Assembly (NCBI GenBank): GCA_041650835.1
Contig: JBAZKL010000002.1
Coordinates: 602,435 to 666,434, forward strand
Length of the DNA stretch: 64,000 nucleotides
Direction of reading: 5' to 3'
DNA from: Candidatus Omnitrophota bacterium
Lineage (GTDB): Bacteria; Omnitrophota; Gorgyraeia; Gygaellales; Profunditerraquicolaceae
A model generated the notes under the pieces. The model was not told the origin of the DNA and ran no database searches. It worked only from the letters and a program-made list of their open reading frames with translations. Below, piece after piece: positions 8,699 to 62,092 of this stretch. Numbering within the stretch: position 1 is the first letter of the stretch; each line of letters starts with the position of its first letter. The position numbers and the translations under genes were made by a program.

Positions 8699-9382
8699 TC
8701 ATTGGGCAACTCTTAATTTTAACAGGATCCACAATGCCAGGACACCGTCTTTCCAACTTGTTTTCTTGCCGTCTTCAATAGTCCGGGGATAATACGAGAT
8801 CGGGACTTCTACTATCCTTTTACCTTGCAGCAAAAGTTTAGCGGTAACTTCCGGACAAAATTCAAAGCCCTTGCAGGAAAGCGCCAAAGATTTCAGGACT
8901 TCAGATTTAAAGGCTTTATACCCTGTCGATTCATCGGTAAGGCAGCTGCCGTATAAAAGGTTAGTCCACCAGCTTAATAACCTGCCTCCCCAGTAAAAAG
9001 CCGCGTAAGAGCGTTTATTTGTTTTTTTGAGTATCCGGGAACCATAAACCACATCTGCTTCTCCCGAAAAAAGCGGCTTCAAAAGCGCCGGATAATCCTG
9101 AGGGTCATACTCGCAATCAGCGTCCTGTATCAGAATAAACTCTCCCTTGGCGCTCTTCATGCCTCTCCTGATCGCTAATCCCTTTCCGAGATTTTTGTGC
9201 TGGTTCAGGTAAATTACCGGAAAGCCGCATACTTGGGCCTCTGAGGCGGTCAGATCAGTCGAGCCGTCATCAACGACGATCACTTCGAAATCAAAATCAA
9301 GCTTCAAAGCAAAAATATCACATAAGACCTTTCCAAGCGTATGCTCCTCATTATACGCGGGGATTATAATACTGAGCTTCAT
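8699..9382 (-). CDS. GT2 glycosyltransferase (polyprenyl-phosphate sugar transferase-like)
   Basis: MKLSIIIPAYNEE...VVDDGSTD is the GT2 signature with a DxD. Confidence 0.85.
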   Translation of the reverse strand: MKLSIIIPAYNEEHTLGKVLCDIFALKLDFDFEVIVVDDGSTDLTASEAQVCGFPVIYLNQHKNLGKGLAIRRGMKSAKGEFILIQDADCEYDPQDYPALLKPLFSGEADVVYGSRILKKTNKRSYAAFYWGGRLLSWWTNLLYGSCLTDESTGYKAFKSEVLKSLALSCKGFEFCPEVTAKLLLQGKRIVEVPISYYPRTIEDGKKTSWKDGVLALWILLKLRVAQ

Positions 9383-9842
9383 TACTCTCTCCCTTTATTT
9401 GAACTCAAAAGACACCTGCGACTATTCGAGCCGCTCATTATACCTGGCGCCCCAGAGCCCCAGTCACCAGTAACCAGTAACCAGCTACGATAACTAGTGA
9501 TTTAATATACGGTGAACGGGTCCTGTCTTGGACTATTTTCTCGCGGGGACGTTTGCCCCGCCCCGGCGTGGCGGGGCTGCACTCAGGTCGGCTGCGTCGC
9601 TCTGCCCGACTTCGTTTATCGAGGGGCATCCATGCCCGCCCCGTTAGAAACCACGTTTTCTAACGGGGCCCGCTCCTTGCCTTTATGCCCCGCTCGTAAA
9701 CAGTCCAAGCCACCCGTTCATCCGATACTCTATAACTCCCCGTCTACCATGGACCGGGGACTATGGACCATCGGCTAACTGTTTACCCCGAGCTTGTCGA
9801 GGGGTGTCTTGTGTCATGCGACCTGTTTACTCCGGACACGCT
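9383..9842. other. GC-rich, hairpin-dense structured intergenic element (copy A of a two-member family). It is a candidate ncRNA or MITE-like element.
   Basis: It contains tandem CCAGT heptads at 9449-9487, a 12-bp perfect stem at 9631-9660, a GCCCCGCC/GGCGGGGC stem, a ctaccatggaccggggactatggacc block at 9744-9772, a ccccgagcttgtcgagggg hairpin at 9786-9804 and a terminal hairpin at 9811-9839. Its GC content is far above the flanking genes. Confidence 0.5.
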
Positions 9843-11336
9843 TTAACGCACCACCTGATACACATATGCCTTCGGGTTCTCCGGGCTGACAAAGACCCGC
9901 TTAAAGCTGTCCGGATAATCGAACACTAAAGGCAGCAGGTAATCAGAAGCGCTGTCACGGTAAATCTTATTCCGGTCAATAATAAAATAATCGACCTTAT
10001 TGCTCTTGATATATTCGTATTGCGCCCGGGTATCGGTTGAGAGCATGAACTTTATCCCCCGCAGCCCATCGGTATAAATATACAGCCAGTTCGGCCTGCG
10101 GGACATTACAACGCTGTTTGGGGTGCCATGCTCTTTTATCCAGTCAACAGATGAAATAAATGCTTTTTCAGCAGGCGTAAAAAAAGAAGCTTGAAGGCGC
10201 GAACTTTCCAGGATATTCCCGGATAAACCGGCCATCAACAAGAATGCGACCGCCCAAGCAGCCGGTTTTCCCCCGCGCGCTATCCCTTGAACACCACGAA
10301 GCAAATAATACAATAAAAACGGCAGGATCGGCACCAGGTAGCGCGCGCCGTGATGAGTCCAGGAAAGGTACAAAACAAAAAAATATACCAGGACATAAAC
10401 GTCCGTTGGAAGTATCCCTTGTTTTTTTAAATGCCGCCAAAAACCGGCGATCACGCATAAAGCGATCACGCAGCCTATAACGGCTTTGAAGATAAACTCC
10501 GGGGTCACCGGGTCGATCATGGCAAAAAAAGGATACAGGAACAGATCCGGTAATTCTATGCTTACGGTAGCAAGCAAATTATAGATCCAGCGGTCCAAAA
10601 AGCCTGTTATCCCGGAGGTAGATGAAACAAATTCCGCGGTATACGCTGAATGGCCAAATAAGATATTTCGAATGACCCAGGGGGCAAGCAGCATAATAAA
10701 AACTATCCCGAAAAGTAAGCTTCGTTTCACATCCCTCTTAAATCCGAAAAATACTATCGCCGCTATAAAAAGCGAAACCCCGATCATTCTCGTATAATAA
10801 GCGGTTCCCGCGCTCAAAACAAACAACAAAAAGTACTCATTCAGCAAAGATTTACTTTCCCGGTACCGGAATAAAGAATATACAGCCAGCAAGGAAAATA
10901 AGGTATAGGGAATCTCGGATAACACCTGCCGGGCATATAAAACCATTTGGGGCGACAACGCGGCTAAAACTACCACTGCCAAAGACAAGCGTTTCTCAAA
11001 GAAAAAAGGAGCCGTATGCAAAAGCAGCATGACCAGAATGATCGCGAAAAGCACAGTTATTACCTTCAAAATAAAATAATCATGAGGAAAGAAATAAACC
11101 CAGGGCGATAATAACGAAGAATAAAAGAATGGATAGTAATTGCCCTTAACATCCTGAAGCCCGGATGTATACACATAGCCCAACCCCTTTGCCAGGGATT
11201 TGGCAAAAATAATATAGATCGCGCTGTCCTCCTGAAGCGGCAAGAGATTGTTTATCCCAAAGCAATAAAATATAACCGCCGTCAAAAGCAGGGACCCGCA
11301 GATCACTGTTTTATACCGGCTCAGCCAAAACATCAT
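9843..11336 (-). CDS. Polytopic GT-C-fold membrane glycosyltransferase-like protein (ArnT/PMT_2-like)
   Basis: The 497-aa ORF has more than 10 predicted TM helices and a soluble C-terminal domain. The YYTRMIGVSLF region resembles the PMT_2 family. Confidence 0.55.
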   Translation of the reverse strand: MMFWLSRYKTVICGSLLLTAVIFYCFGINNLLPLQEDSAIYIIFAKSLAKGLGYVYTSGLQDVKGNYYPFFYSSLLSPWVYFFPHDYFILKVITVLFAIILVMLLLHTAPFFFEKRLSLAVVVLAALSPQMVLYARQVLSEIPYTLFSLLAVYSLFRYRESKSLLNEYFLLFVLSAGTAYYTRMIGVSLFIAAIVFFGFKRDVKRSLLFGIVFIMLLAPWVIRNILFGHSAYTAEFVSSTSGITGFLDRWIYNLLATVSIELPDLFLYPFFAMIDPVTPEFIFKAVIGCVIALCVIAGFWRHLKKQGILPTDVYVLVYFFVLYLSWTHHGARYLVPILPFLLYYLLRGVQGIARGGKPAAWAVAFLLMAGLSGNILESSRLQASFFTPAEKAFISSVDWIKEHGTPNSVVMSRRPNWLYIYTDGLRGIKFMLSTDTRAQYEYIKSNKVDYFIIDRNKIYRDSASDYLLPLVFDYPDSFKRVFVSPENPKAYVYQVVR

Positions 11337-24333: not shown

Positions 24334-26256
24334 CTACGCCTCCTTCTTTATCGTTTTATACGGCTTCGGAGGCTCTTCTTTACCGTAATAACGGTATTTA
24401 TGAGAATAATACGGATAGGTCGCGATCGCTTCAGTTTGAGGCTTGGTATGATTAAGGACAATCCCCGCGATCTTCGCCCCGACAGATTCTAACTGCCCCT
24501 TCGCCCGGATGAGCGCTTCACGGCTTGTCCTTCCGATCTCGTAAACCACGACCACGCAATCTATCTTAGGCGCCAGAAGGCTCGCGTCAGTAACGGGAAG
24601 GATCGGAGGAGAATCAAAGATGATCACTTCGAACTTCATTTTTAATTTCTCGATCACATTATTTAACTCCCTGGATTCTATCAATTCAGCAGGATTAAAG
24701 GGAAGGCGGCCGGAAGTAAGAAGCCATATATTCTCAAGCCCCGGGGTCATCCTGATCTCTTCAAAATTCATTTCCCCCATCATAAGGTCGGTAACATTCT
24801 TTAATGCCTCTTCAAGAGGAATAGTGCCGGTCAAAAGTTCATTTAAGCCGGGTTCTTTTTTAATACCGAAGGTCTTAGCGATGACCGGACGCCGCAGGTC
24901 AGCGGAAACTAAAAGCGTCTTCAGGCCGGCCTGAGCTATAACGATCGATAAATTGACCGCGATACTGCTCTTTCCTTCCCGGGGTCCGGAACTGGTGACC
25001 ATGATAGTCTTCCTGGAAGGATTAAGCTTTAAATTCGTATGGATATTACGATACGCTTCAGTTGTCGGGGATTTCGGATTATAATGCGCGAATAATCTGA
25101 TGAGCCGTTCCTGCTCTTCAGTTTTCTCAGGCGGAGAGAATTTTTCCCTAATGCGGTCAAGGATCCCGTATCCGTGATCGCTATCGTTGATCACCGAGGG
25201 AATAACTCCTAAAACCGGAAGCTTGACAACATTCTCCACGTCTTCTATGGTCCCGATCGAAGTATCCAAGGTCTCAAGCACAAAGGCCAACGCCACACCT
25301 AAGATCAATCCCATGAACGCTCCTACCACGATCCCCATCTTTTCGTTGCCGGCGACAGGGCCGGAAGGCAGAACAGCGGGATTAACGATCGAGATATCCC
25401 CCACCTTCTGCGCTTCGGTAATGCGGGCTTCCTCAAGTTTTTCCTTAAGCATAGCGTAAAGCTTTTTGTTAACATCGATCTCCCTGGTCAGGCGGGTATA
25501 TTCCAGCTCCTGCCCGGAAAAACCTTTAACCTGGGATTCCATTTGTTCGATTTGTTCACGGGCCTGCATAACACGAGGATGTTTTTCCGTATATTTTTGC
25601 AGTAGATCAGCCAGTTGAAATTCCAATTCCAGCAATTTCTGCTGCATAGGTTCGGCTAATTTAATATTCTTCACTTCATCGCCAAAAATACGCAATTTAT
25701 CTTCGGCTTGGCGCAGGCGGTCCTCTAAAGACGCCAGCTGTTCTTCAATGAACTGACGGGTATGGCGCGCCTGTTTTGCTTTATCAACCAGGTTTTCATC
25801 AATATATACCTGCGCGACATTATTAGCCAGGTCCATTGCCTCTTTGGCATTATCAGCGGTAGCGACGATACGGATCATATTGGTATTACCGACTTTTTCC
25901 GAATCGATACTTCCCTGCAAATTGCTCACGACGCTGTTAACAAGCTCCACCGGAGACTTTTCATCGATCATACCGCGCAATAACGCGACCTTCTTCATAA
26001 CCGGATACCCTTTAATGAATTTAGTCTCCGATTCCATCACATCGCCGGGATTATACATGACCATTTCGGTCAAAAGCCCGGCAATGGTCTTACGTTCTTC
26101 TATTTTAATAGTAGCGCTGGATTGATAGACAGGTTGTTTTTTAGAAAGGTAGTATATACTGCCGATAAAAACAGTAAGGAAGGTAAAAAAAATGATTAAT
26201 TTTCTTTTATGAAAAATACGGACATAATCTCTTAGATTAAGTTCATACTGCGGCAA
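24334..26256 (-). CDS. wzc: Polysaccharide co-polymerase fused to a BY tyrosine autokinase (Wzc/EpsB-like)
   Basis: The N-terminal TM region plus Wzz-like domain is followed by a C-terminal Walker A (SSGPREGKSSIAVNLS) and a Tyr-rich tail YPYYSHKYRYYG. Confidence 0.85.
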   Translation of the reverse strand: MPQYELNLRDYVRIFHKRKLIIFFTFLTVFIGSIYYLSKKQPVYQSSATIKIEERKTIAGLLTEMVMYNPGDVMESETKFIKGYPVMKKVALLRGMIDEKSPVELVNSVVSNLQGSIDSEKVGNTNMIRIVATADNAKEAMDLANNVAQVYIDENLVDKAKQARHTRQFIEEQLASLEDRLRQAEDKLRIFGDEVKNIKLAEPMQQKLLELEFQLADLLQKYTEKHPRVMQAREQIEQMESQVKGFSGQELEYTRLTREIDVNKKLYAMLKEKLEEARITEAQKVGDISIVNPAVLPSGPVAGNEKMGIVVGAFMGLILGVALAFVLETLDTSIGTIEDVENVVKLPVLGVIPSVINDSDHGYGILDRIREKFSPPEKTEEQERLIRLFAHYNPKSPTTEAYRNIHTNLKLNPSRKTIMVTSSGPREGKSSIAVNLSIVIAQAGLKTLLVSADLRRPVIAKTFGIKKEPGLNELLTGTIPLEEALKNVTDLMMGEMNFEEIRMTPGLENIWLLTSGRLPFNPAELIESRELNNVIEKLKMKFEVIIFDSPPILPVTDASLLAPKIDCVVVVYEIGRTSREALIRAKGQLESVGAKIAGIVLNHTKPQTEAIATYPYYSHKYRYYGKEEPPKPYKTIKKEA

Positions 26257-26742
26257 ATTTACCTCCTCGTCTAATGTTCTAACATATCATAGAATCAATG
26301 GGTTATCAAGTGTTTTCTGTCGTTGGATTATGCTAAGATAGGGTTAAAAACATCAGGCGCGATAACACAGGCCGCAAGTGTTCGATAGTCCACAGTCCAT
26401 GGTAGATGAGAAACTTTACGGTTATGCTGGAGCGCACATTAGAAAACTTTCGGCACAGAGTCATATGGGGAGTGCACAAGGAATTACGGCGAGTTGAAGC
26501 ACGCTCTTTACGTAAGTCTATAGCGTAAACGAGCCGTAAACCGCAGTGCACGGCGAAAGTTTTCAGTGCGCGGAAGCATGACCGTAAAGTTTGATCGTAA
26601 AAAAACAGATGACTGGAACACTGGAGACTGGAGCATCCGGAAAACAGGGAATCAGGTTGCAGGTCACCCCTTGACAAACTCGGGGTGAATGAGGCATAAG
26701 CGCGCCATAGGCATGCCTCATTCAAGCTCAAATAACATAGGA
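26257..26742. repeat. Structured intergenic element (copy B), related to 9383-9842. It has a 48-bp imperfect inverted repeat and is MITE-like or a candidate ncRNA.
   Basis: The inverted-repeat arms at 26411-26458 and 26548-26595 are about 85% identical. The element also has ACTGG (CCAGT on the minus strand) heptads at 26611-26635, a ccccttgacaaactcgggg hairpin at 26667-26685, a 12-bp stem hairpin at 26686-26724 and a ccatggac...ggactat block at 26378-26405. Confidence 0.5.
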
Positions 26743-27639
26743 TTAGAAATTCTTGATCTCCTGATTGACATACGAGCCTCGCGATAGCGGTTCAAGTATC
26801 TGGCTGAGGAAGTAATTAAGGTTGGCAATGAATTTCTTCGGGACAAAGATTATATCTTCCGACACAAGAGAAATATTCTGATGAGCATCGCCCCTGAGTA
26901 CCTTGTTGAGCGTGATACGTTTGACCTCGGGCTTTTCCAAGCCTCCGCGGATAATGACAATACTGGAGGCCACCGCGTCCTTGGTCAACCCGCCTGCTAA
27001 GGTAATAGCTTCAACGATCGTTTTAGCGCCGGTGAGAGAATAAACACCCGGCCGGTAGATCTCCCCGAGTACCAGCACTCTTTGGCCGCCGATCTTCTTG
27101 ATCGATATGGAAACCTCCGGATACTTGACAAATTCTTTTAACCGCTCGGTCAGGAGCGCGTCGAGCTCTGTAAGCGTCAACCCTTGCGCCTCTACTTCAC
27201 CGATCAAAGGGAACGAGATCATGCCGTCAGGGCGCACAACCGCTTCCTGGTCCAGGTCCTGGTTCTGCCAGACAGAAATATGCAGGACGTCGTCCTCTCC
27301 AATGGTATATTCCTGAACAGGCTTTCTTTTAACGCTTAAAACCTTAGCTTTACTCTCAGGCGCCGCCGGCGTTACTTCAGGAGCTGTTAAAGCGGAAGCG
27401 GACTGCTTTTGCTCCGGAATAACCTCACTCAAAGCTTCTTCTTTTTGGTTCAAAAGGTCCAATGCTTTCTTAAACTCACCTTGAGCTTCAGGGAACTTAT
27501 CCTGTTGATAATACAGATTACCCTTGAGATAATATTCACGCGCCTGCTCTTGAATATGCTCATCCTGCCCGTAAAGGCCAGGATGAGCCATCCCGGAAAT
27601 TAGTAGAACAAATACCGTTCTCCTGACACAATTAAACAT
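26743..27639 (-). CDS. wza: Wza-type outer-membrane polysaccharide export protein (Poly_export plus SLBB)
   Basis: YTIGEDDVLHISVWQNQDL...PDGMISFPLIGEV is the Poly_export signature, and a signal peptide is present. Confidence 0.8.
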   Translation of the reverse strand: MFNCVRRTVFVLLISGMAHPGLYGQDEHIQEQAREYYLKGNLYYQQDKFPEAQGEFKKALDLLNQKEEALSEVIPEQKQSASALTAPEVTPAAPESKAKVLSVKRKPVQEYTIGEDDVLHISVWQNQDLDQEAVVRPDGMISFPLIGEVEAQGLTLTELDALLTERLKEFVKYPEVSISIKKIGGQRVLVLGEIYRPGVYSLTGAKTIVEAITLAGGLTKDAVASSIVIIRGGLEKPEVKRITLNKVLRGDAHQNISLVSEDIIFVPKKFIANLNYFLSQILEPLSRGSYVNQEIKNF

Positions 27640-44787: not shown

Positions 44788-44930
44788 CAAGTCTAAAGTT
44801 TAAAGTCTAAATATCCAAGGAAGGTTCAAGACTAAAGGCTAAATTTTAAAATTACCTGCCGGCCGGCAGGCAGGAACCTTTAACCTTCAAACTTCCTTTG
44901 TTATTTATACTTTGGCCTTTAAAATTAAAA
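44788..44930. repeat. AT-rich palindromic intergenic repeat of about 140 bp, family copy 1
   Basis: The arms are built from taaag/ctttaa words with aaggaagg and cttccttt cores, around a GC palindromic centre cctgccggccggcagg. The other three copies are at 54235, 57385 and 61960. Confidence 0.65.
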
Positions 44931-54208: not shown

Positions 54209-54234
54209 GAGTTCAGAAATTAAGGATACGATAT

Positions 54235-54376
54235 AAATTTTAAAGTTTAAAGGTTAAATAACAAAGGAAGTCTCAAGTTTAAAGGATAAATTTTAAAATT
54301 TCGTACCTGCCGGTAAGCAGGAACCTTTGGACTTTGAACTTCCTTTATTCTTTGGATTTTAACCTTTGATCTTTAC
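54235..54376. repeat. AT-rich palindromic intergenic repeat, family copy 2
   Basis: It has the same arm words as copy 1 and the centre cctgccggtaagcagg. Confidence 0.65.
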
Positions 54377-54409: not shown

Positions 54410-55345
54410 TTATAAGATTTTAATGTAGGCCTGTTTTCTTAACCCTTCTACCCATTTGAGAAGCTCTTCCTGCATCTTCTTTTCGAAAATAAACCGGTAG
54501 ATCTCCTGTTGAGCCTCTTCAAAGCTCTGCTCTTTCGGCGGGATGATATTATTCAGTCTAAAAACATAAAAATAACCTTCACTCTTTACCGGATGGCTTA
54601 GTTCGCCGACCTTAAGATTAAAAACAGCCTCTTCGATCTCTTTACGTAATTCCTGGCCGCCGCCGCGCGCGCTCAACTTAGTGATCTTTATCGGATATTT
54701 AAGGGAAAGGTCGATAAAACTCTCTCCCGCGGCGATCTTTGCATAAACTTCCTGAGCGGTCGCGGCATCCTCCGCTTCAATAGAATCAAACTCACGCTGC
54801 TCGGGAACCCTAAAATCTTTAATGTTCTTGTAATAGAAATCCGTAACCTCTCCCGGATTAATACTGATCTTAGCGCGGACCTGTGTTTCGACAATAGCAT
54901 ACATGAGCATCTGCTCACGGATCCTCTTTTCCAGGTCAGCGGTTACCAGCCCTTGGGCAGCCAAAGAGCTCTGATATTCCGCTTCACTATTATAGCGCTT
55001 ACGGATCTCCGCCAATTTATCTTTGACCCTGGTCTCATCGATCCCGGTATCTTTCTTCTTAGCCTCCTGAAGGATAAGCCGGTCTTCGATCAAACGCTCC
55101 AACAGGTCTGATTTTATCGACGCGATCTTTTGCTGGACCTGGTCTTCGGGATATTCGCGCGAAAGCTGCACATAGGTAAAATTAATAAAATCATTCAGGT
55201 CTTTTTGCGTGATAATATCGCTATTGACCACCGCGATCATTTTATCCGCGGCGACGGCCTGCGAAGAGAATACAAAAAAAACAGAACATACAATAAGAAA
55301 AATAAGGGGCGCGAGCGCCTGGTTTTGAGCGTTACATTTGCGCAT
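54410..55345 (-). CDS. SurA/PrsA-like periplasmic chaperone with a PpiC-type PPIase domain
   Basis: A signal peptide, a SurA-N-like helical region and a parvulin-like SHPVKSEGYFYVF are present. The start was trimmed to M23. Confidence 0.7.
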   Translation of the reverse strand: MRKCNAQNQALAPLIFLIVCSVFFVFSSQAVAADKMIAVVNSDIITQKDLNDFINFTYVQLSREYPEDQVQQKIASIKSDLLERLIEDRLILQEAKKKDTGIDETRVKDKLAEIRKRYNSEAEYQSSLAAQGLVTADLEKRIREQMLMYAIVETQVRAKISINPGEVTDFYYKNIKDFRVPEQREFDSIEAEDAATAQEVYAKIAAGESFIDLSLKYPIKITKLSARGGGQELRKEIEEAVFNLKVGELSHPVKSEGYFYVFRLNNIIPPKEQSFEEAQQEIYRFIFEKKMQEELLKWVEGLRKQAYIKIL

Positions 55346-57239
55346 GGTTAAAAACTCCTGCTTGTTTAAAATTGTCAATCGCTTCTCTGAGCAGCCGGCA
55401 ATACAGGTCAAATCCGACGGCGTTAATAAAACCGTGCTGTTGCACGCCCAAAAGATTACCTGCGCCTCTGATCTCCAGATCTTCCATCGCGATCTTAAAG
55501 CCGGAACCTAATTGCGTGTATTCCTGAATAGCATGCAGCCGTTTATGGGCATCCGTGCTTAAAACCCGGTGCCGGGGGACTAAAAAAAAGGCGTAGGCCG
55601 GACGGTTAAACCTGCCTACCCTTCCCCTGAGCTGATGCAGATCAGACACCCCGAACGTATGCGCGTCATCAATAATGATGGTATTCACATTCGGGATATC
55701 GATCCCTGATTCAATGATCATGGTGCATAAAAGGACGTCGATCTTGCCTTTTAAAAGCTCGGACATTACCTTTTCCAGGTATTGCGGCGGCATCTTTCCG
55801 TGCGCCACCTCTATCACGGTAGTCACCGGAAGGAGTTTTACCAGGCGCTGGCGCACCTTCTCAATATCATGGATGCGGTTATGCAAAAAATAGACCTGCC
55901 CCTTACGGTTGAGCTCCCGCGAGATCGCCTGGAGGATAATATCTTCGTCATATTCTATCACAATCGTTTTTATAGGCAATCTATTTTCAGGAGGAGTATT
56001 GATCACGGAAAAATCCTTGGCGTTCATCAGGCTTAAATATAATGTCCGGGGTATAGGCGTGGCCGTCAAGGTCAAAACATCGGTGGTCAAGCGAAGCGAT
56101 TTGAGCTTTTCCTTGGCTTTGACGCCGAAACGCTGCTCTTCATCGATGATCACCAGGCCCAGGTCTTTAAACCTGACATCATCGGACAATAAGCGGTGCG
56201 TCCCGATGACAATATCGATCGCGCCGGCGCTAATACCTTCAATGATCTGTTTTTGCTCACCCGGAGTCTTGAACCTAGAGAGCATTTCGACATTAACGGG
56301 AAAATCTTTAAGCCGCTGAGTGAAATTCTGGTAATGCTGCTCAGCCAGGATAGTCGTCGGGACTAAATACGCCACCTGTTTATTATCCATGACAGCCTTA
56401 AATGCGGCTCGCATCGCGACTTCCGTCTTGCCGTAACCTACGTCGCCGCACAAAAGGCGGTCCATCGGCTTAATACTTTCCATATCTTTTTTTACTTCGG
56501 AAGCTGCGGTAATCTGGTCCGGCGTCTCTTTATAGGGGAATGTCCGCTCAAATTCTTTCTGCCAGGGGGTATCCACGGCGAATGAAAAACCCTGGATCGA
56601 TAAACGCATCGCCTGTAACGATAACAGCTCGATCGCCAGCTTTTGGATCCCCTTCTTTGCCCGCTCTTTGATCCTCTGCCATTCTTTACTTCCCAAGCGG
56701 TAGAGCTTTGGCCTGCGCAGCTGGAAAGCCACATATTTTTGCACCAGGTTCATGCTCTCGACAGGGACAAAAAGCTTTTCCTGCCGGTCGTATTCAATGA
56801 CCAGATGCTCCTGCATCTTTTCCCTGACCTTGATCTTTTCAAAGCCGAGGAACCTGCCGATACCATGCTGGTTATGGACGACATAATCTCCTCTGTGCAA
56901 ATCAAGGAAGTTATCCAGAGGGAAGGATTCATTAAAAGCAGCCGCCTTAAAAGAATGCAGCTTCTTCACCGGCAGGATAATGACCATGGTGTGGGGCCAC
57001 AGAGGGTTGCCTTCCGCGGGATTATACGTCTTTATCGAGAGGACCACATCATCCTCAAGTTCAATGCGGACAGGCAGCTCAAAAGTATAGGGAAAGATAT
57101 CGACAATAGAGCCGCGACAGGCGAAATCGCCTTCTTCAGCAGCAAAATCCTGCCGCTTATACCCGAATTCGGCCAGCAAACGGATGATCGCTTCCAGCCC
57201 AAGGGAGCTACCGATATGTAGTTTAAGGGATTTAAACAC
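55332..57239 (-). CDS. mfd: Transcription-repair coupling factor Mfd, short form lacking the UvrB-homology N-terminal domains
   Basis: A CarD/TRCF RNAP-interaction domain is followed by a DEAD-box helicase (GDVGYGKTEVAMRAAF, DEEQRFG). The protein is only 635 aa. Confidence 0.75.
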   Translation of the reverse strand: MFKSLKLHIGSSLGLEAIIRLLAEFGYKRQDFAAEEGDFACRGSIVDIFPYTFELPVRIELEDDVVLSIKTYNPAEGNPLWPHTMVIILPVKKLHSFKAAAFNESFPLDNFLDLHRGDYVVHNQHGIGRFLGFEKIKVREKMQEHLVIEYDRQEKLFVPVESMNLVQKYVAFQLRRPKLYRLGSKEWQRIKERAKKGIQKLAIELLSLQAMRLSIQGFSFAVDTPWQKEFERTFPYKETPDQITAASEVKKDMESIKPMDRLLCGDVGYGKTEVAMRAAFKAVMDNKQVAYLVPTTILAEQHYQNFTQRLKDFPVNVEMLSRFKTPGEQKQIIEGISAGAIDIVIGTHRLLSDDVRFKDLGLVIIDEEQRFGVKAKEKLKSLRLTTDVLTLTATPIPRTLYLSLMNAKDFSVINTPPENRLPIKTIVIEYDEDIILQAISRELNRKGQVYFLHNRIHDIEKVRQRLVKLLPVTTVIEVAHGKMPPQYLEKVMSELLKGKIDVLLCTMIIESGIDIPNVNTIIIDDAHTFGVSDLHQLRGRVGRFNRPAYAFFLVPRHRVLSTDAHKRLHAIQEYTQLGSGFKIAMEDLEIRGAGNLLGVQQHGFINAVGFDLYCRLLREAIDNFKQAGVFNHAQM

Positions 57240-57384: not shown

Positions 57385-57548
57385 AAATAACTATTTAAAA
57401 TTAAAGTCTAAAGGTTAAAGTCTAAATAATAAAGGAAGATTAAAGGCCTAATGTTCCTATCTGTTGGTAGGCAGGTAATTTTAAAATTTATCCTTTAAAC
57501 TTTAAGCTTCCTTTGTTATTTAACCTTTAGGCTTTAACCTTAACTTAC
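57385..57548. repeat. AT-rich palindromic intergenic repeat, family copy 3 (rearranged or inverted core)
   Basis: It contains taaagtctaaaggttaaagtctaaata ... cttcctttgttatttaacctttaggctttaacc and the centre ggtaggcagg. Confidence 0.6.
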
Positions 57549-61959: not shown

Positions 61960-62092
61960 TTAATTTTAAAGTCTAAAGTTTAAAGATCAAAGGAAGGTTT
62001 AAAATTAAAGTTTAAATTTTAAAATTGATCATTAAACCTTTAATCTTCCTTTGATATTTAGACTTTAACCTTTAAACTTTAGCTTTTAAAGC
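61960..62092. repeat. AT-rich palindromic intergenic repeat, family copy 4. Its right end overlaps the hisI 3' end and stop codon.
   Basis: ttttaaagtctaaagtttaaagatcaaaggaagg...cttcctttgatatttagactttaacctttaaacttt. The last 7 codons of hisI (KIALKAKV*) are encoded by the repeat. Confidence 0.65.

Follow-up and report, generated by a model that had tools for sequence, protein, structure and literature searches.

Positions 9383-9842 of a 64,000-nucleotide stretch of Candidatus Omnitrophota DNA (contig JBAZKL010000002.1 of assembly GCA_041650835.1, positions 602,435 to 666,434; hereafter the window) form a spacer that lies exactly between the genes for a PMT_2-type and a GT2 glycosyltransferase. 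At its centre is a structured core whose fold is conserved among five copies, with a preference for the minus (operon) strand, and which is very probably under selection (9514-9719) to fold as a single strand. The spacer as a whole is a mosaic of three kinds of sequence, namely repeat arrays, the structured core and a GT2-proximal block, and arose by insertion, specific to this lineage, at a PMT_2/GT2 junction that had been tight. The core represents a small family of structured elements that was previously uncatalogued and is new to Rfam; the general kind is known. As a full explanation we favour, with confidence evenly poised, a new structured non-coding RNA (ncRNA) embedded in a nest of repeats that splits the operon.

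Structure and conservation of the core

The core and its parts are listed below; all are read on the minus strand, and related loci are designated here and throughout by L numbers.

9514-9719, structured core, 206 nt, 61% GC, three-helix; covariance-model match at 9505-9728 with 186 bits
9687-9719, 5' arm of the closing helix P1 (P1a 9712-9719, P1b 9687-9709), with conserved tandem G.A/A.G pairs
9514-9550, 3' arm of P1 (P1b 9527-9550, bulge 9522-9526, P1a 9514-9521)
9551-9582, hairpin P3, 11 pairs, 6 of them compensatory, 100% paired
9590-9642, helix P2 (9634-9642 with 9590-9600), enclosing the variable hairpin P2b at 9601-9633
9638-9669, perfect 13-bp hairpin, a lineage-specific core insert present only in the window and L129, at the same site

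In a model-based alignment of the five copies, standard pairs fill 96.8% of the base-pair cells and 21 of the 52 pairs have changed on both sides, a count reached by none of 500 shuffles and compared with at most 5 in slid controls. With four copies aligned by plain MAFFT, RNAalifold counted 16 compensatory pairs out of 52. The closing helix P1 is ~31 bp long, and compensatory changes are found in 11 of its 28 scored pairs. The lower stem of P3 covaries fully, appearing as GCCCC/GGGGC, GCCAC/GUGGC, GUUUU/AAAAC and AUUUU/AAAAU, and its loop reads ACGCYGG in four copies and UCGCAGG in L130. Unpaired positions are also conserved, with 28 of 58 ungapped columns invariant and the junction sequences AUAAAGGCAA, GAGCGGGC and GAGCGACGCAGCC nearly so across the copies. 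The minus strand is favoured because, read in this direction, the alignment has 9 G-U cells versus 2 A-C cells, the predicted fold is 6-12.5 kcal/mol more stable in all five copies, and the tandem G.A pairs become C.U/U.C on the opposite strand.

The perfect 13-bp hairpin (insert region 9634-9678) is bordered by a direct repeat, G(A/G)GCGGGC, and is identical in the window and L129, the rest of these two copies being 75% identical. The possibility that its 27-nt palindrome is a dispersed mini-element is not supported, as the 11-mer sought occurs only inside the copies and at one chance-level site. A type I toxin-antitoxin peptide in the core was rejected; inspection by eye gave a 5-codon open reading frame (ORF) only, and this is not conserved.

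The original prediction had described a spacer much richer in GC than the flanking genes and built almost entirely of perfect stems. The compositional contrast is clear, at 0.57-0.605 across 9400-9799 versus 0.44-0.50 in the flanks (200-nt windows), and the excess is restricted to ~9505-9728 (GC 0.561 for the whole spacer, 0.61 for the core and 0.467 for the window). The stems that were named are also present: the 12-bp stem GCCCCGTTAGAAA/TTTCTAACGGGGC has 13-nt arms at 9638-9650 and 9657-9669 that are 100% complementary, GCCCCGCC.../...GGCGGGGC lies at 9555-9577, and a GGGGCAT..ATGCCC stem is found in the spacer. Two further long-range arm pairs join 9524-9548 with 9688-9712 and 9496-9521 with 9712-9737. 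The description as almost entirely perfect stems was nevertheless an overstatement, bulges or mismatches being present in most helices. Folding of the spacer gives minimum free energy z-scores of -5.0 on the minus and -5.2 on the plus strand, with none of 100 dinucleotide shuffles folding as well.

Known RNA families do not account for the core. With Rfam 15 there were no matches in the whole window at gathering thresholds, and nothing credible in five related loci. Permissive searches of the two spacers discussed here (E up to 10) gave chance-level matches only (E 2-8, 12.7-15 bits on 9300-9900), and no match was found over the core homologues in L129, L047 and L041 (E up to 0.1). ARAGORN found no tRNA or tmRNA gene. 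A plus-strand match to Guanidine-II (14.7 bits) was dismissed, as was a match to Actino-pnp in L041, which lies outside the core and scores 29.9 bits against a threshold of 47.7.

Copies of the core and their contexts

Five copies of the core are known, one in the window and the others on four contigs of related Omnitrophota, and no two share a locus. The copy in L047 (1723-1904) was detected by BLAST with the spacer as query (match at 1733-1894); it is 87% identical to the window core over shared columns and occupies a 588-bp gap ~2 kb upstream of wzc in JBAZTA01, a genome whose own PMT_2/GT2 junction is empty. Two more were found by searching protein collections for mis-called ORFs with the translation of a spurious 88-codon ORF of the spacer: L129 (470-706), which adjoins ruvB, and L130 (643-829), which adjoins a PilZ gene and was identified independently of the covariance model. 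BLAST with the L129 copy then gave L041 (3820-4004), upstream of recA. The copies are 164-219 nt long, with pairwise identities of 59-87%.

A covariance model built from four of the copies scored L130, out of sample, at 134 bits. It found no copy beyond L130 and the training copies in the 781 kb of loci searched. With filters off it detected a single copy in the 64-kb window, and ~20 kb more of the contig contained none. Further copies and strong covariation, whose absence would have counted against the original prediction, exist for the central ~206 nt only. The core gave no match in a viral contig scan or in BLAST against phages and plasmids.

Only in the window does the core lie inside an operon. 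In L129, L041 and L130 it is antisense to both neighbouring genes, and in L047 it stands behind an ABC-transporter operon on the same strand, with a convergent gene on its other side. These contexts argue against a leader, a riboswitch or an antiterminator resembling EAR (eps-associated RNA), and fit either a free-standing small-RNA gene or a DNA element that is blind to orientation. The suggested check for target-site duplications was negative: the five border pairs (GGATG|...|CACCG, CTACT|...|ACCTG, TTGCT|...|ACCTA, GCTAA|...|TGGTT and GCCTC|...|GAAAC) contain none, and they have no motif in common.

Two modules absent from the window accompany the core in L047 and L129. At L047 1938-2172 and L129 797-998, immediately upstream of the core, is a long hairpin module (arms AACCTATCGATTTTTCTCGCTC... 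/ ...GCTCGAAAAACCGATAGGTT), and a 47-nt block, TTTGCTCTAGCAAAAAACCCTCGAACAGCATCGCC, 96% identical between the two loci, has the same placement.

A lineage-specific insertion at the PMT_2/GT2 junction

The spacer is a derived insertion, because four relatives have a tight PMT_2/GT2 junction. The junction measures 28 bp in the Omnitrophota genome JBAZTA01 (L044; PMT_2 80% identical), and in three more distant Omnitrophota loci it is a 4-bp overlap (L131, L132) or 18 bp (L133). The ancestral junction was probably translationally coupled. In another close relative the junction is filled, by 493 bp (L045) and 540 bp (L046); a 47-bp tandem duplication of the small hairpin listed below accounts for the difference. 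Empty and filled junctions differ by the entire ~430-bp mosaic rather than by the core only.

Features of the spacer outside the core, on the minus strand unless stated otherwise, are as follows.

9383-9842, whole spacer, a derived insertion of ~430-460 bp by comparison of orthologous junctions
9383-9523, GT2-proximal block, 89% conserved in the closest spacer-bearing relatives
9383-9396, ribosome-binding region AAAGGGAGAGAGUA, read from the sequence before the GT2 ATG
9408-9434, terminator-like hairpin GCGGCUCGAAUAGUCGC followed by the U-run AGGUGUCUUUU, starting inside the initiation region of the promoter
9437-9467, promoter-like site GTGACT-N19-TATAAT, read from the sequence, with the -10 at 9442-9437 and a -35-like hexamer at 9467-9462
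9447-9487, heptad array CTGGTTA/CTGGTGA (CCAGTAA on the plus strand), overlapping the -35-like hexamer
9742-9769, heptad array GGTCCAT AGTCCCC GGTCCAT GGTAGAC, also present in the wza-wzc spacer at 26386-26407, plus strand
9785-9806, small hairpin repeat CACCCCTCGACAAGCTCGGGGT, with a second copy at 26665-26686, plus strand
9810-9836, half hairpin repeat with AAACAGGTCGCATGACAC, 21 nt identical in L045 and L046

The original prediction treated the 460 bp as a single element. This view is not supported: the spacer is a mosaic, and the 300 nt distal to GT2 are replaced in the closest relatives. Only 9383-9523 (~140 nt) is conserved with L045 and L046. The remainder is represented there by two tandem ~190-nt units, each composed of the hairpin repeat, AAACAGGTCG and GTCCATA-type heptads, and L045 retains a core 3' remnant of ~12 nt.

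A promoter-like site and a terminator-like hairpin before GT2

The predicted -10-like TATAAT is present on the gene strand, 55 nt before the GT2 ATG. In the L045 orthologue the corresponding site, GTGACT-18-TATAAT, was called by our promoter scanner with 10 of 12 matches. The terminator-like hairpin is also kept in L045, where a G.U pair of the window is replaced by A-U. The overlap of the promoter-like site with this hairpin gives some support to the earlier suggestion of an insulator. The hairpin begins upstream of the position where transcription from this promoter is expected to start; it would thus be complete in a transcript that reads through and incomplete in one made from the promoter, and on this basis it may act as an insulator.

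The predicted heptads are real, with 3.6 copies of CCAGTAA reported at 9460-9484 by Tandem Repeats Finder and five CCAG units recognisable by eye. The array at the -35 has one unit more in L045 than in the window. Since the heptads overlap the -35-like hexamer and differ by one unit between these two loci, repeat slippage could tune the GT2 promoter-like site.

Heptad arrays and the small hairpin repeat

The direct ATGGACC repeats that had been noted are found at 9746-9755 and 9760-9769. Lag-7 autocorrelation is raised in both flanks of the core (z 2.8 and 3.8, the latter for 9729-9842) and not in the core itself (z -1.8); the signal recurs in the wza-wzc spacer and in the spacers of relatives (up to z 9), and is ~0 in coding DNA. 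Seven is the commonest tandem period in the window, accounting for 8 of the 21 arrays found by Tandem Repeats Finder, all eight of which are intergenic (starting at 9460, 26611, 44789, 54234, 57402, 57480, 61965 and 62063). The heptad flanks may well be neutral.

Six of these arrays lie in other intergenic regions: AAGTCTA at 44789-44811, TAAAGTT at 54234-54258, TAAAGTC at 57402-57434, TTTAAAC at 57480-57509, TTTAAAG (8.9 copies) at 61965-62023 and CTTTAAC at 62057-62090. Another Omnitrophota locus, L077, carries AAAGCTC (15.6 copies), CTTTACA (7.6 copies) and two more long heptad arrays upstream of wzc (2275-2688).

An exact-pattern scan of representative genomes for the shared heptad module gave no matches. 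A metagenome scan returned 41 loci, which were rejected as copies of the element, being generic (RGTCCAT)n arrays, often in inverted pairs; L041 alone among them also has the core. The small hairpin repeat is found within a 39-nt block that is 100% identical in L129, and variants occur in L045, L046 and L050. The hairpin CACCCCTYGACAARCTCGGGGT occurs twice in the window, versus 0.00 occurrences expected.

Cyanobacterial STRR sequences are heptanucleotide tandem repeats. The arrays flanking the core resemble them, and the TAACTGA repeats described below, in consisting of 7-nt tandem units that are exclusively intergenic, often just upstream of genes, and recurrent. They differ in their units (CCAGTAA, GTCCATA, TGTGTCT, TTTAAAG and others), with many flavours in one genome. 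The abstract of MacGregor (2015, PMC4679880) reports TAACTGA heptamer repeats, of unknown function, from Beggiatoaceae, Cyanobacteria and Bacteroidetes; Omnitrophota are absent from that abstract, and the arrays described here differ further in flanking long hairpin modules.

The wza-wzc spacer

A second spacer of the same cluster had been proposed to share three sequence modules with the first and to be a further copy of it. The relevant features are these.

26257-26742, wza-wzc spacer, 486 bp
26411-26592, rod-like imperfect hairpin of ~180 nt, different from the core
26309-26281, minus strand, wzc promoter-like site TTGATA-17-TATGTT with an upstream TG, in the wzc-proximal 60 nt

The common modules are genuine and comprise 28 nt at 86% and 25 nt at 88% identity (BLAST), the hairpin CACCCCTYGACAARCTCGGGGT and a 7-nt array at 26611-26633. 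The proposal of a second copy of the structured core does not stand, since the filters-off covariance-model search found nothing in 26257-26742 beyond a 4-bit match to the small hairpin. The two spacers share generic heptads and one small hairpin only, on opposite strands and in a different order: hairpin, heptads, core, heptads on the minus strand of the PMT_2/GT2 spacer, and heptads, long hairpin, heptads, hairpin on the plus strand of the wza-wzc spacer.

The rod-like hairpin at 26411-26592 is 88% conserved in L050, which is the corresponding spacer of the L045 genome; it shows one compensatory change there, but its outer stem is lost. A 46-nt piece of this hairpin (91%) adjoins the core copy in L129. 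The spacer also contains a 12-bp perfect hairpin after wza. An invertible promoter (inverton) was considered and rejected, as the window and L050 have the orthologous hairpin the same way round and no inverted repeats bracket it.

The wzc promoter-like block is conserved in many Omnitrophota, at a Wzc protein identity of only ~60%, and is also present in JBAZTA01, where the gene before wzc encodes a divergently transcribed ABC transporter. Because the site is conserved even below a divergent gene, wzc probably starts its own transcription unit, and the block may be a conserved promoter/operator. The block reads CTTGATAAC..(N)..TATGATATGTT and is kept just upstream of wzc in L049, L050, L054, L062, L063, L067, L070 and L087; within it a dyad, TTCTA-N8-TAGAA, covers the -10.

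Signs of rearrangement and a RAYT-like gene

The wza-wzc spacer measures 486 bp in the window, 968 bp in L050 (2033-3000) and 320 bp on a contig of another relative, so that these spacers are hypervariable in length. The L050 spacer includes ~12 consecutive degenerate NNNNNCC units and (TGTGTCT)7. It also holds an inverted 181-nt copy (94%) of part of the PMT_2/GT2 spacer of its own genome, and a truncated 37-nt piece of the core 5' end, preceded by the 5' flank found in the window copy. The recA gene of L041 is 90% identical at the nucleotide level to that of the window genome, which places an intact but diverged (59%) core upstream of recA, together with window-type fragments, in a close relative. 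The fragments and the second type upstream of recA suggest that there may be two or more core copies per genome.

Assemblies break at these spacers. The independent Logan assembly L002 breaks inside the core, starting at window position 9539, and in the L048 Logan contig, from a 71%-identical relative, the first base is 156 nt upstream of wzc. A likely cause, to judge from these breaks, is confusion of the assembler by sequence that different loci or strains have in common.

The contig of the window also encodes a RAYT-like protein.

L134 19504-20697, RAYT-like gene, 397 aa, N-terminal Y1 transposase domain; same contig, ~10 kb beyond window position 1 and ~19 kb from the PMT_2/GT2 spacer

The best match of the protein is the model for REP-associated tyrosine transposases (RAYT), NF047646, with 71.6 bits (E 6e-20), below the curated cut-off of 80; it also matches PF01797 with 45.6 bits. 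Its gene is preceded by two direct copies of the 19-nt GAAAGTGCCAGGCACAAGC, which was found nowhere else in 136 loci, a set that covers the region of the PMT_2/GT2 spacer (L001, L134) and not the wza-wzc spacer. Directly upstream of the gene, at L134 19258-19384, is a match to the cyclic di-GMP-I (c-di-GMP-I) riboswitch (RF01051; score 36, gathering threshold 35), followed by a terminator-like hairpin; a RAYT-like gene would be an unusual target for this riboswitch. Just beyond the gene, from L134 21171 onward, a gene of 8192 residues is called, one of the giant genes seen in Omnitrophota.

A proposed RNA that would split the operon, and what weighs against it

In the explanation that we favour, the core would be made as RNA, through transcription continuing out of PMT_2 or starting at a weak promoter that belongs to the core, and its fold would be a highly stable domain, left as an RNA of ~200-320 nt that ends at the hairpin and U-run at ~9408. 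GT2 and the downstream transferase genes would restart from the TATAAT promoter-like site, and the restarted transcript, beginning inside the hairpin, would escape termination. Restart combined with termination of the upstream RNA would thus divide one operon into two units.

Several observations weigh against this explanation. Transcription of the core is a prediction: no consistent sigma-70 site lies beside it, and immediately upstream a consensus scanner detected none at any of the five loci, whichever strand was read. Nor did the scanner call the promoter-like site of the window, because its spacing is 19 nt. The copies number only five, all from close relatives, and the compensatory changes may trace back to few events; moreover the five-copy alignment (A7) was fitted to the covariance model. 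Finally, the core is at a different locus in every genome, leaves fragments behind (the 37-nt 5' piece in L050 and the 3' remnant in L045), lies always or nearly always among dispersed repeats, and shares its contig with a gene for a RAYT-like tyrosine transposase. All of this is also expected of a mobile DNA element of the hairpin type, and the terminal inverted repeats of such elements can covary too.

Alternative explanations

The main rival, a serious possibility though not one that we think probable, is that the core, and perhaps the whole nest, is non-autonomous mobile DNA of the REPIN, miniature inverted-repeat transposable element (MITE) or IS200/IS605-derivative type. Such DNA would transpose as a single-stranded hairpin, perhaps with the nearby RAYT-like Y1 transposase as its enzyme, and its fold and effect on the operon would be by-products. 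The presence/absence polymorphism at the PMT_2/GT2 junction, the five copies at five unrelated loci, the core fragments and inverted duplicate common to two spacers of one genome, and the contig break of L002 inside the element would all follow, and the arms of P1 (9514-9550/9687-9719) would serve as long terminal inverted arms. Y1 enzymes act on hairpins of one strand and make no target duplication, which would fit both the strand asymmetry and the duplication-free borders. However, those borders also lack a common motif, the covariance model found a single copy in the window and none in the adjoining ~20 kb, the GAAAGTGCCAGGCACAAGC repeats beside the RAYT-like gene have no counterpart in the loci searched, and the NCBIfam score of its product is under the cut-off. 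The pattern of conservation is also the reverse of that expected for transposase-bound ends, with the outermost termini least conserved (AACGGG... versus CAGCGG...) and the inner junctions and loops most, and a three-way junction with conserved tandem G.A pairs is unlike a simple REPIN hairpin.

Comparison with known elements is similarly divided. As in the BIME/REP/REPIN systems of enterobacteria and pseudomonads, palindromic and other units form a mosaic that occurs in both orientations, between genes and inside operons, varies in composition between close relatives and coexists with a RAYT-like gene in the same genome. In contrast to them, the units here are 7-nt arrays and long hairpins rather than 35-nt REPs, copy number looks low, the centre is a 206-nt three-helix structure with conserved loops, and the flanks of the RAYT-like gene have no REP-type sequence in common with the mosaic. 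MITEs of the Correia/ERIC type are co-transcribed hairpins that provide promoters and change how mRNA is processed. Insertion at an operon junction, long terminal inverted arms, a promoter-like end and presence/absence between relatives are features in common with these, but the element described here has no target-site duplication, termini less conserved than its interior and a low apparent copy number, and is GC-rich and branched with inner helices that covary.

A further version, which we consider unlikely, combines the two ideas: the core would be a new Omnitrophota ncRNA class with a mobile gene that relocates with the heptad arrays and has no protein gene of its own.

It is highly improbable that the core is a very diverged housekeeping RNA, of which 6S RNA would be the best candidate by size and shape. 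6S RNA has a long closing helix, a single-stranded 5' junction, a 3'-side junction hairpin and an inner stem. The length of the copies, their closing helix, single-stranded junction strands (notably AUAAAGGCAA) and 3'-side P3 hairpin resemble this layout; most copies are free-standing, and their GC is above the genome average. Against this, the 6S model (RF00013) gave no match on a 601-nt region even at E up to 10, the position is non-syntenic even among close relatives, fragments and probably two or more paralogous types occur within one species, extra hairpins are inserted into what would be the open-promoter strand, and a three-way junction rather than a rod is predicted.

Still more improbable is a cis-acting RNA of the glycan operon, whether an EAR-like processive antiterminator, a riboswitch or an mRNA stabiliser. 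The position of the core on the sense strand within a polysaccharide gene cluster, the JBAZTA01 copy ~2 kb upstream of wzc in the same cluster and the very stable closing helix would suit such a role. EAR itself (Bacillus; the Rfam epsC family) is a structured RNA element on the sense strand between exopolysaccharide-cluster genes. This explanation is nevertheless largely refuted by the homologue contexts: three of the four homologues are antisense to their neighbours, and ruvB, recA and the PilZ gene have no connection with glycan synthesis, most homologues lying outside glycan clusters. In relatives and outgroups the orthologous operon has no spacer at all, and there is no sequence or structure match to EAR and no Rfam match to any riboswitch. 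The RfaH/ops (JUMPstart) element was also rejected, as an ops-like GGCGGTAG with at most one mismatch is absent from both 9383-9842 and 26257-26742.

Barely conceivable, lastly, and already refuted for the core, is that the spacer is non-functional hairpin-rich filler or that its 63-aa and 88-aa Arg/Pro-rich ORFs are real proteins: plus-strand open frames of 76-90 codons do cross the core in every copy, and two of them are called as genes in public assemblies (P0153, P0155), but the frame shifts between copies (switching twice in L047 relative to the window), the substitutions are compensatory for base pairs, and neutral filler is excluded because nearly all pairs (96.8%) are kept at only 59-87% identity. 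Neither these two ORFs nor the other core-crossing frames have a Pfam match; long frames are expected from the high GC, of which they are by-products, in line with the original description of both small ORFs as artefacts.

Neighbouring genes

Proteins identical to the PMT_2 and Wzc products are assigned in public records to a Candidatus Omnitrophota metagenome-assembled genome. Every long ORF of the window is on the minus strand, and the PMT_2 and GT2 genes belong to a long transferase/methyltransferase cluster downstream of wza and wzc.

8699-9382, minus strand, GT2 gene, with its ATG at 9382-9380
9843-11336, minus strand, GT39/PMT_2-type membrane glycosyltransferase gene
24334-26256, wzc
26743-27639, wza

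Elsewhere in the window, an Mfd-like gene at 54410-57239 is present as two overlapping ORFs (55332-57239 and 54410-55411). The split could be a frameshift, an assembly error or genuine.

Significance for Omnitrophota

Omnitrophota are uncultured, and their ncRNAs and repeat biology are hardly known. The locus described here yields a covariance model for a structured element outside every Rfam family, and shows that heptanucleotide arrays, described in the literature from Cyanobacteria, Beggiatoaceae and Bacteroidetes, also shape the intergenic DNA of this phylum. If the core is a RAYT-type mobile hairpin, that system would gain a phylum and a cargo structure of much greater complexity; if it is a mobile ncRNA gene, the repeat nests would be footprints of an undescribed mobility mechanism based on RNA or on hairpins. 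The spacer is also a natural example of a repeat/RNA insertion that splits a tightly coupled glycan operon and apparently adds a new promoter, and such insertions would be one route to diversity in surface-polysaccharide expression between close relatives.

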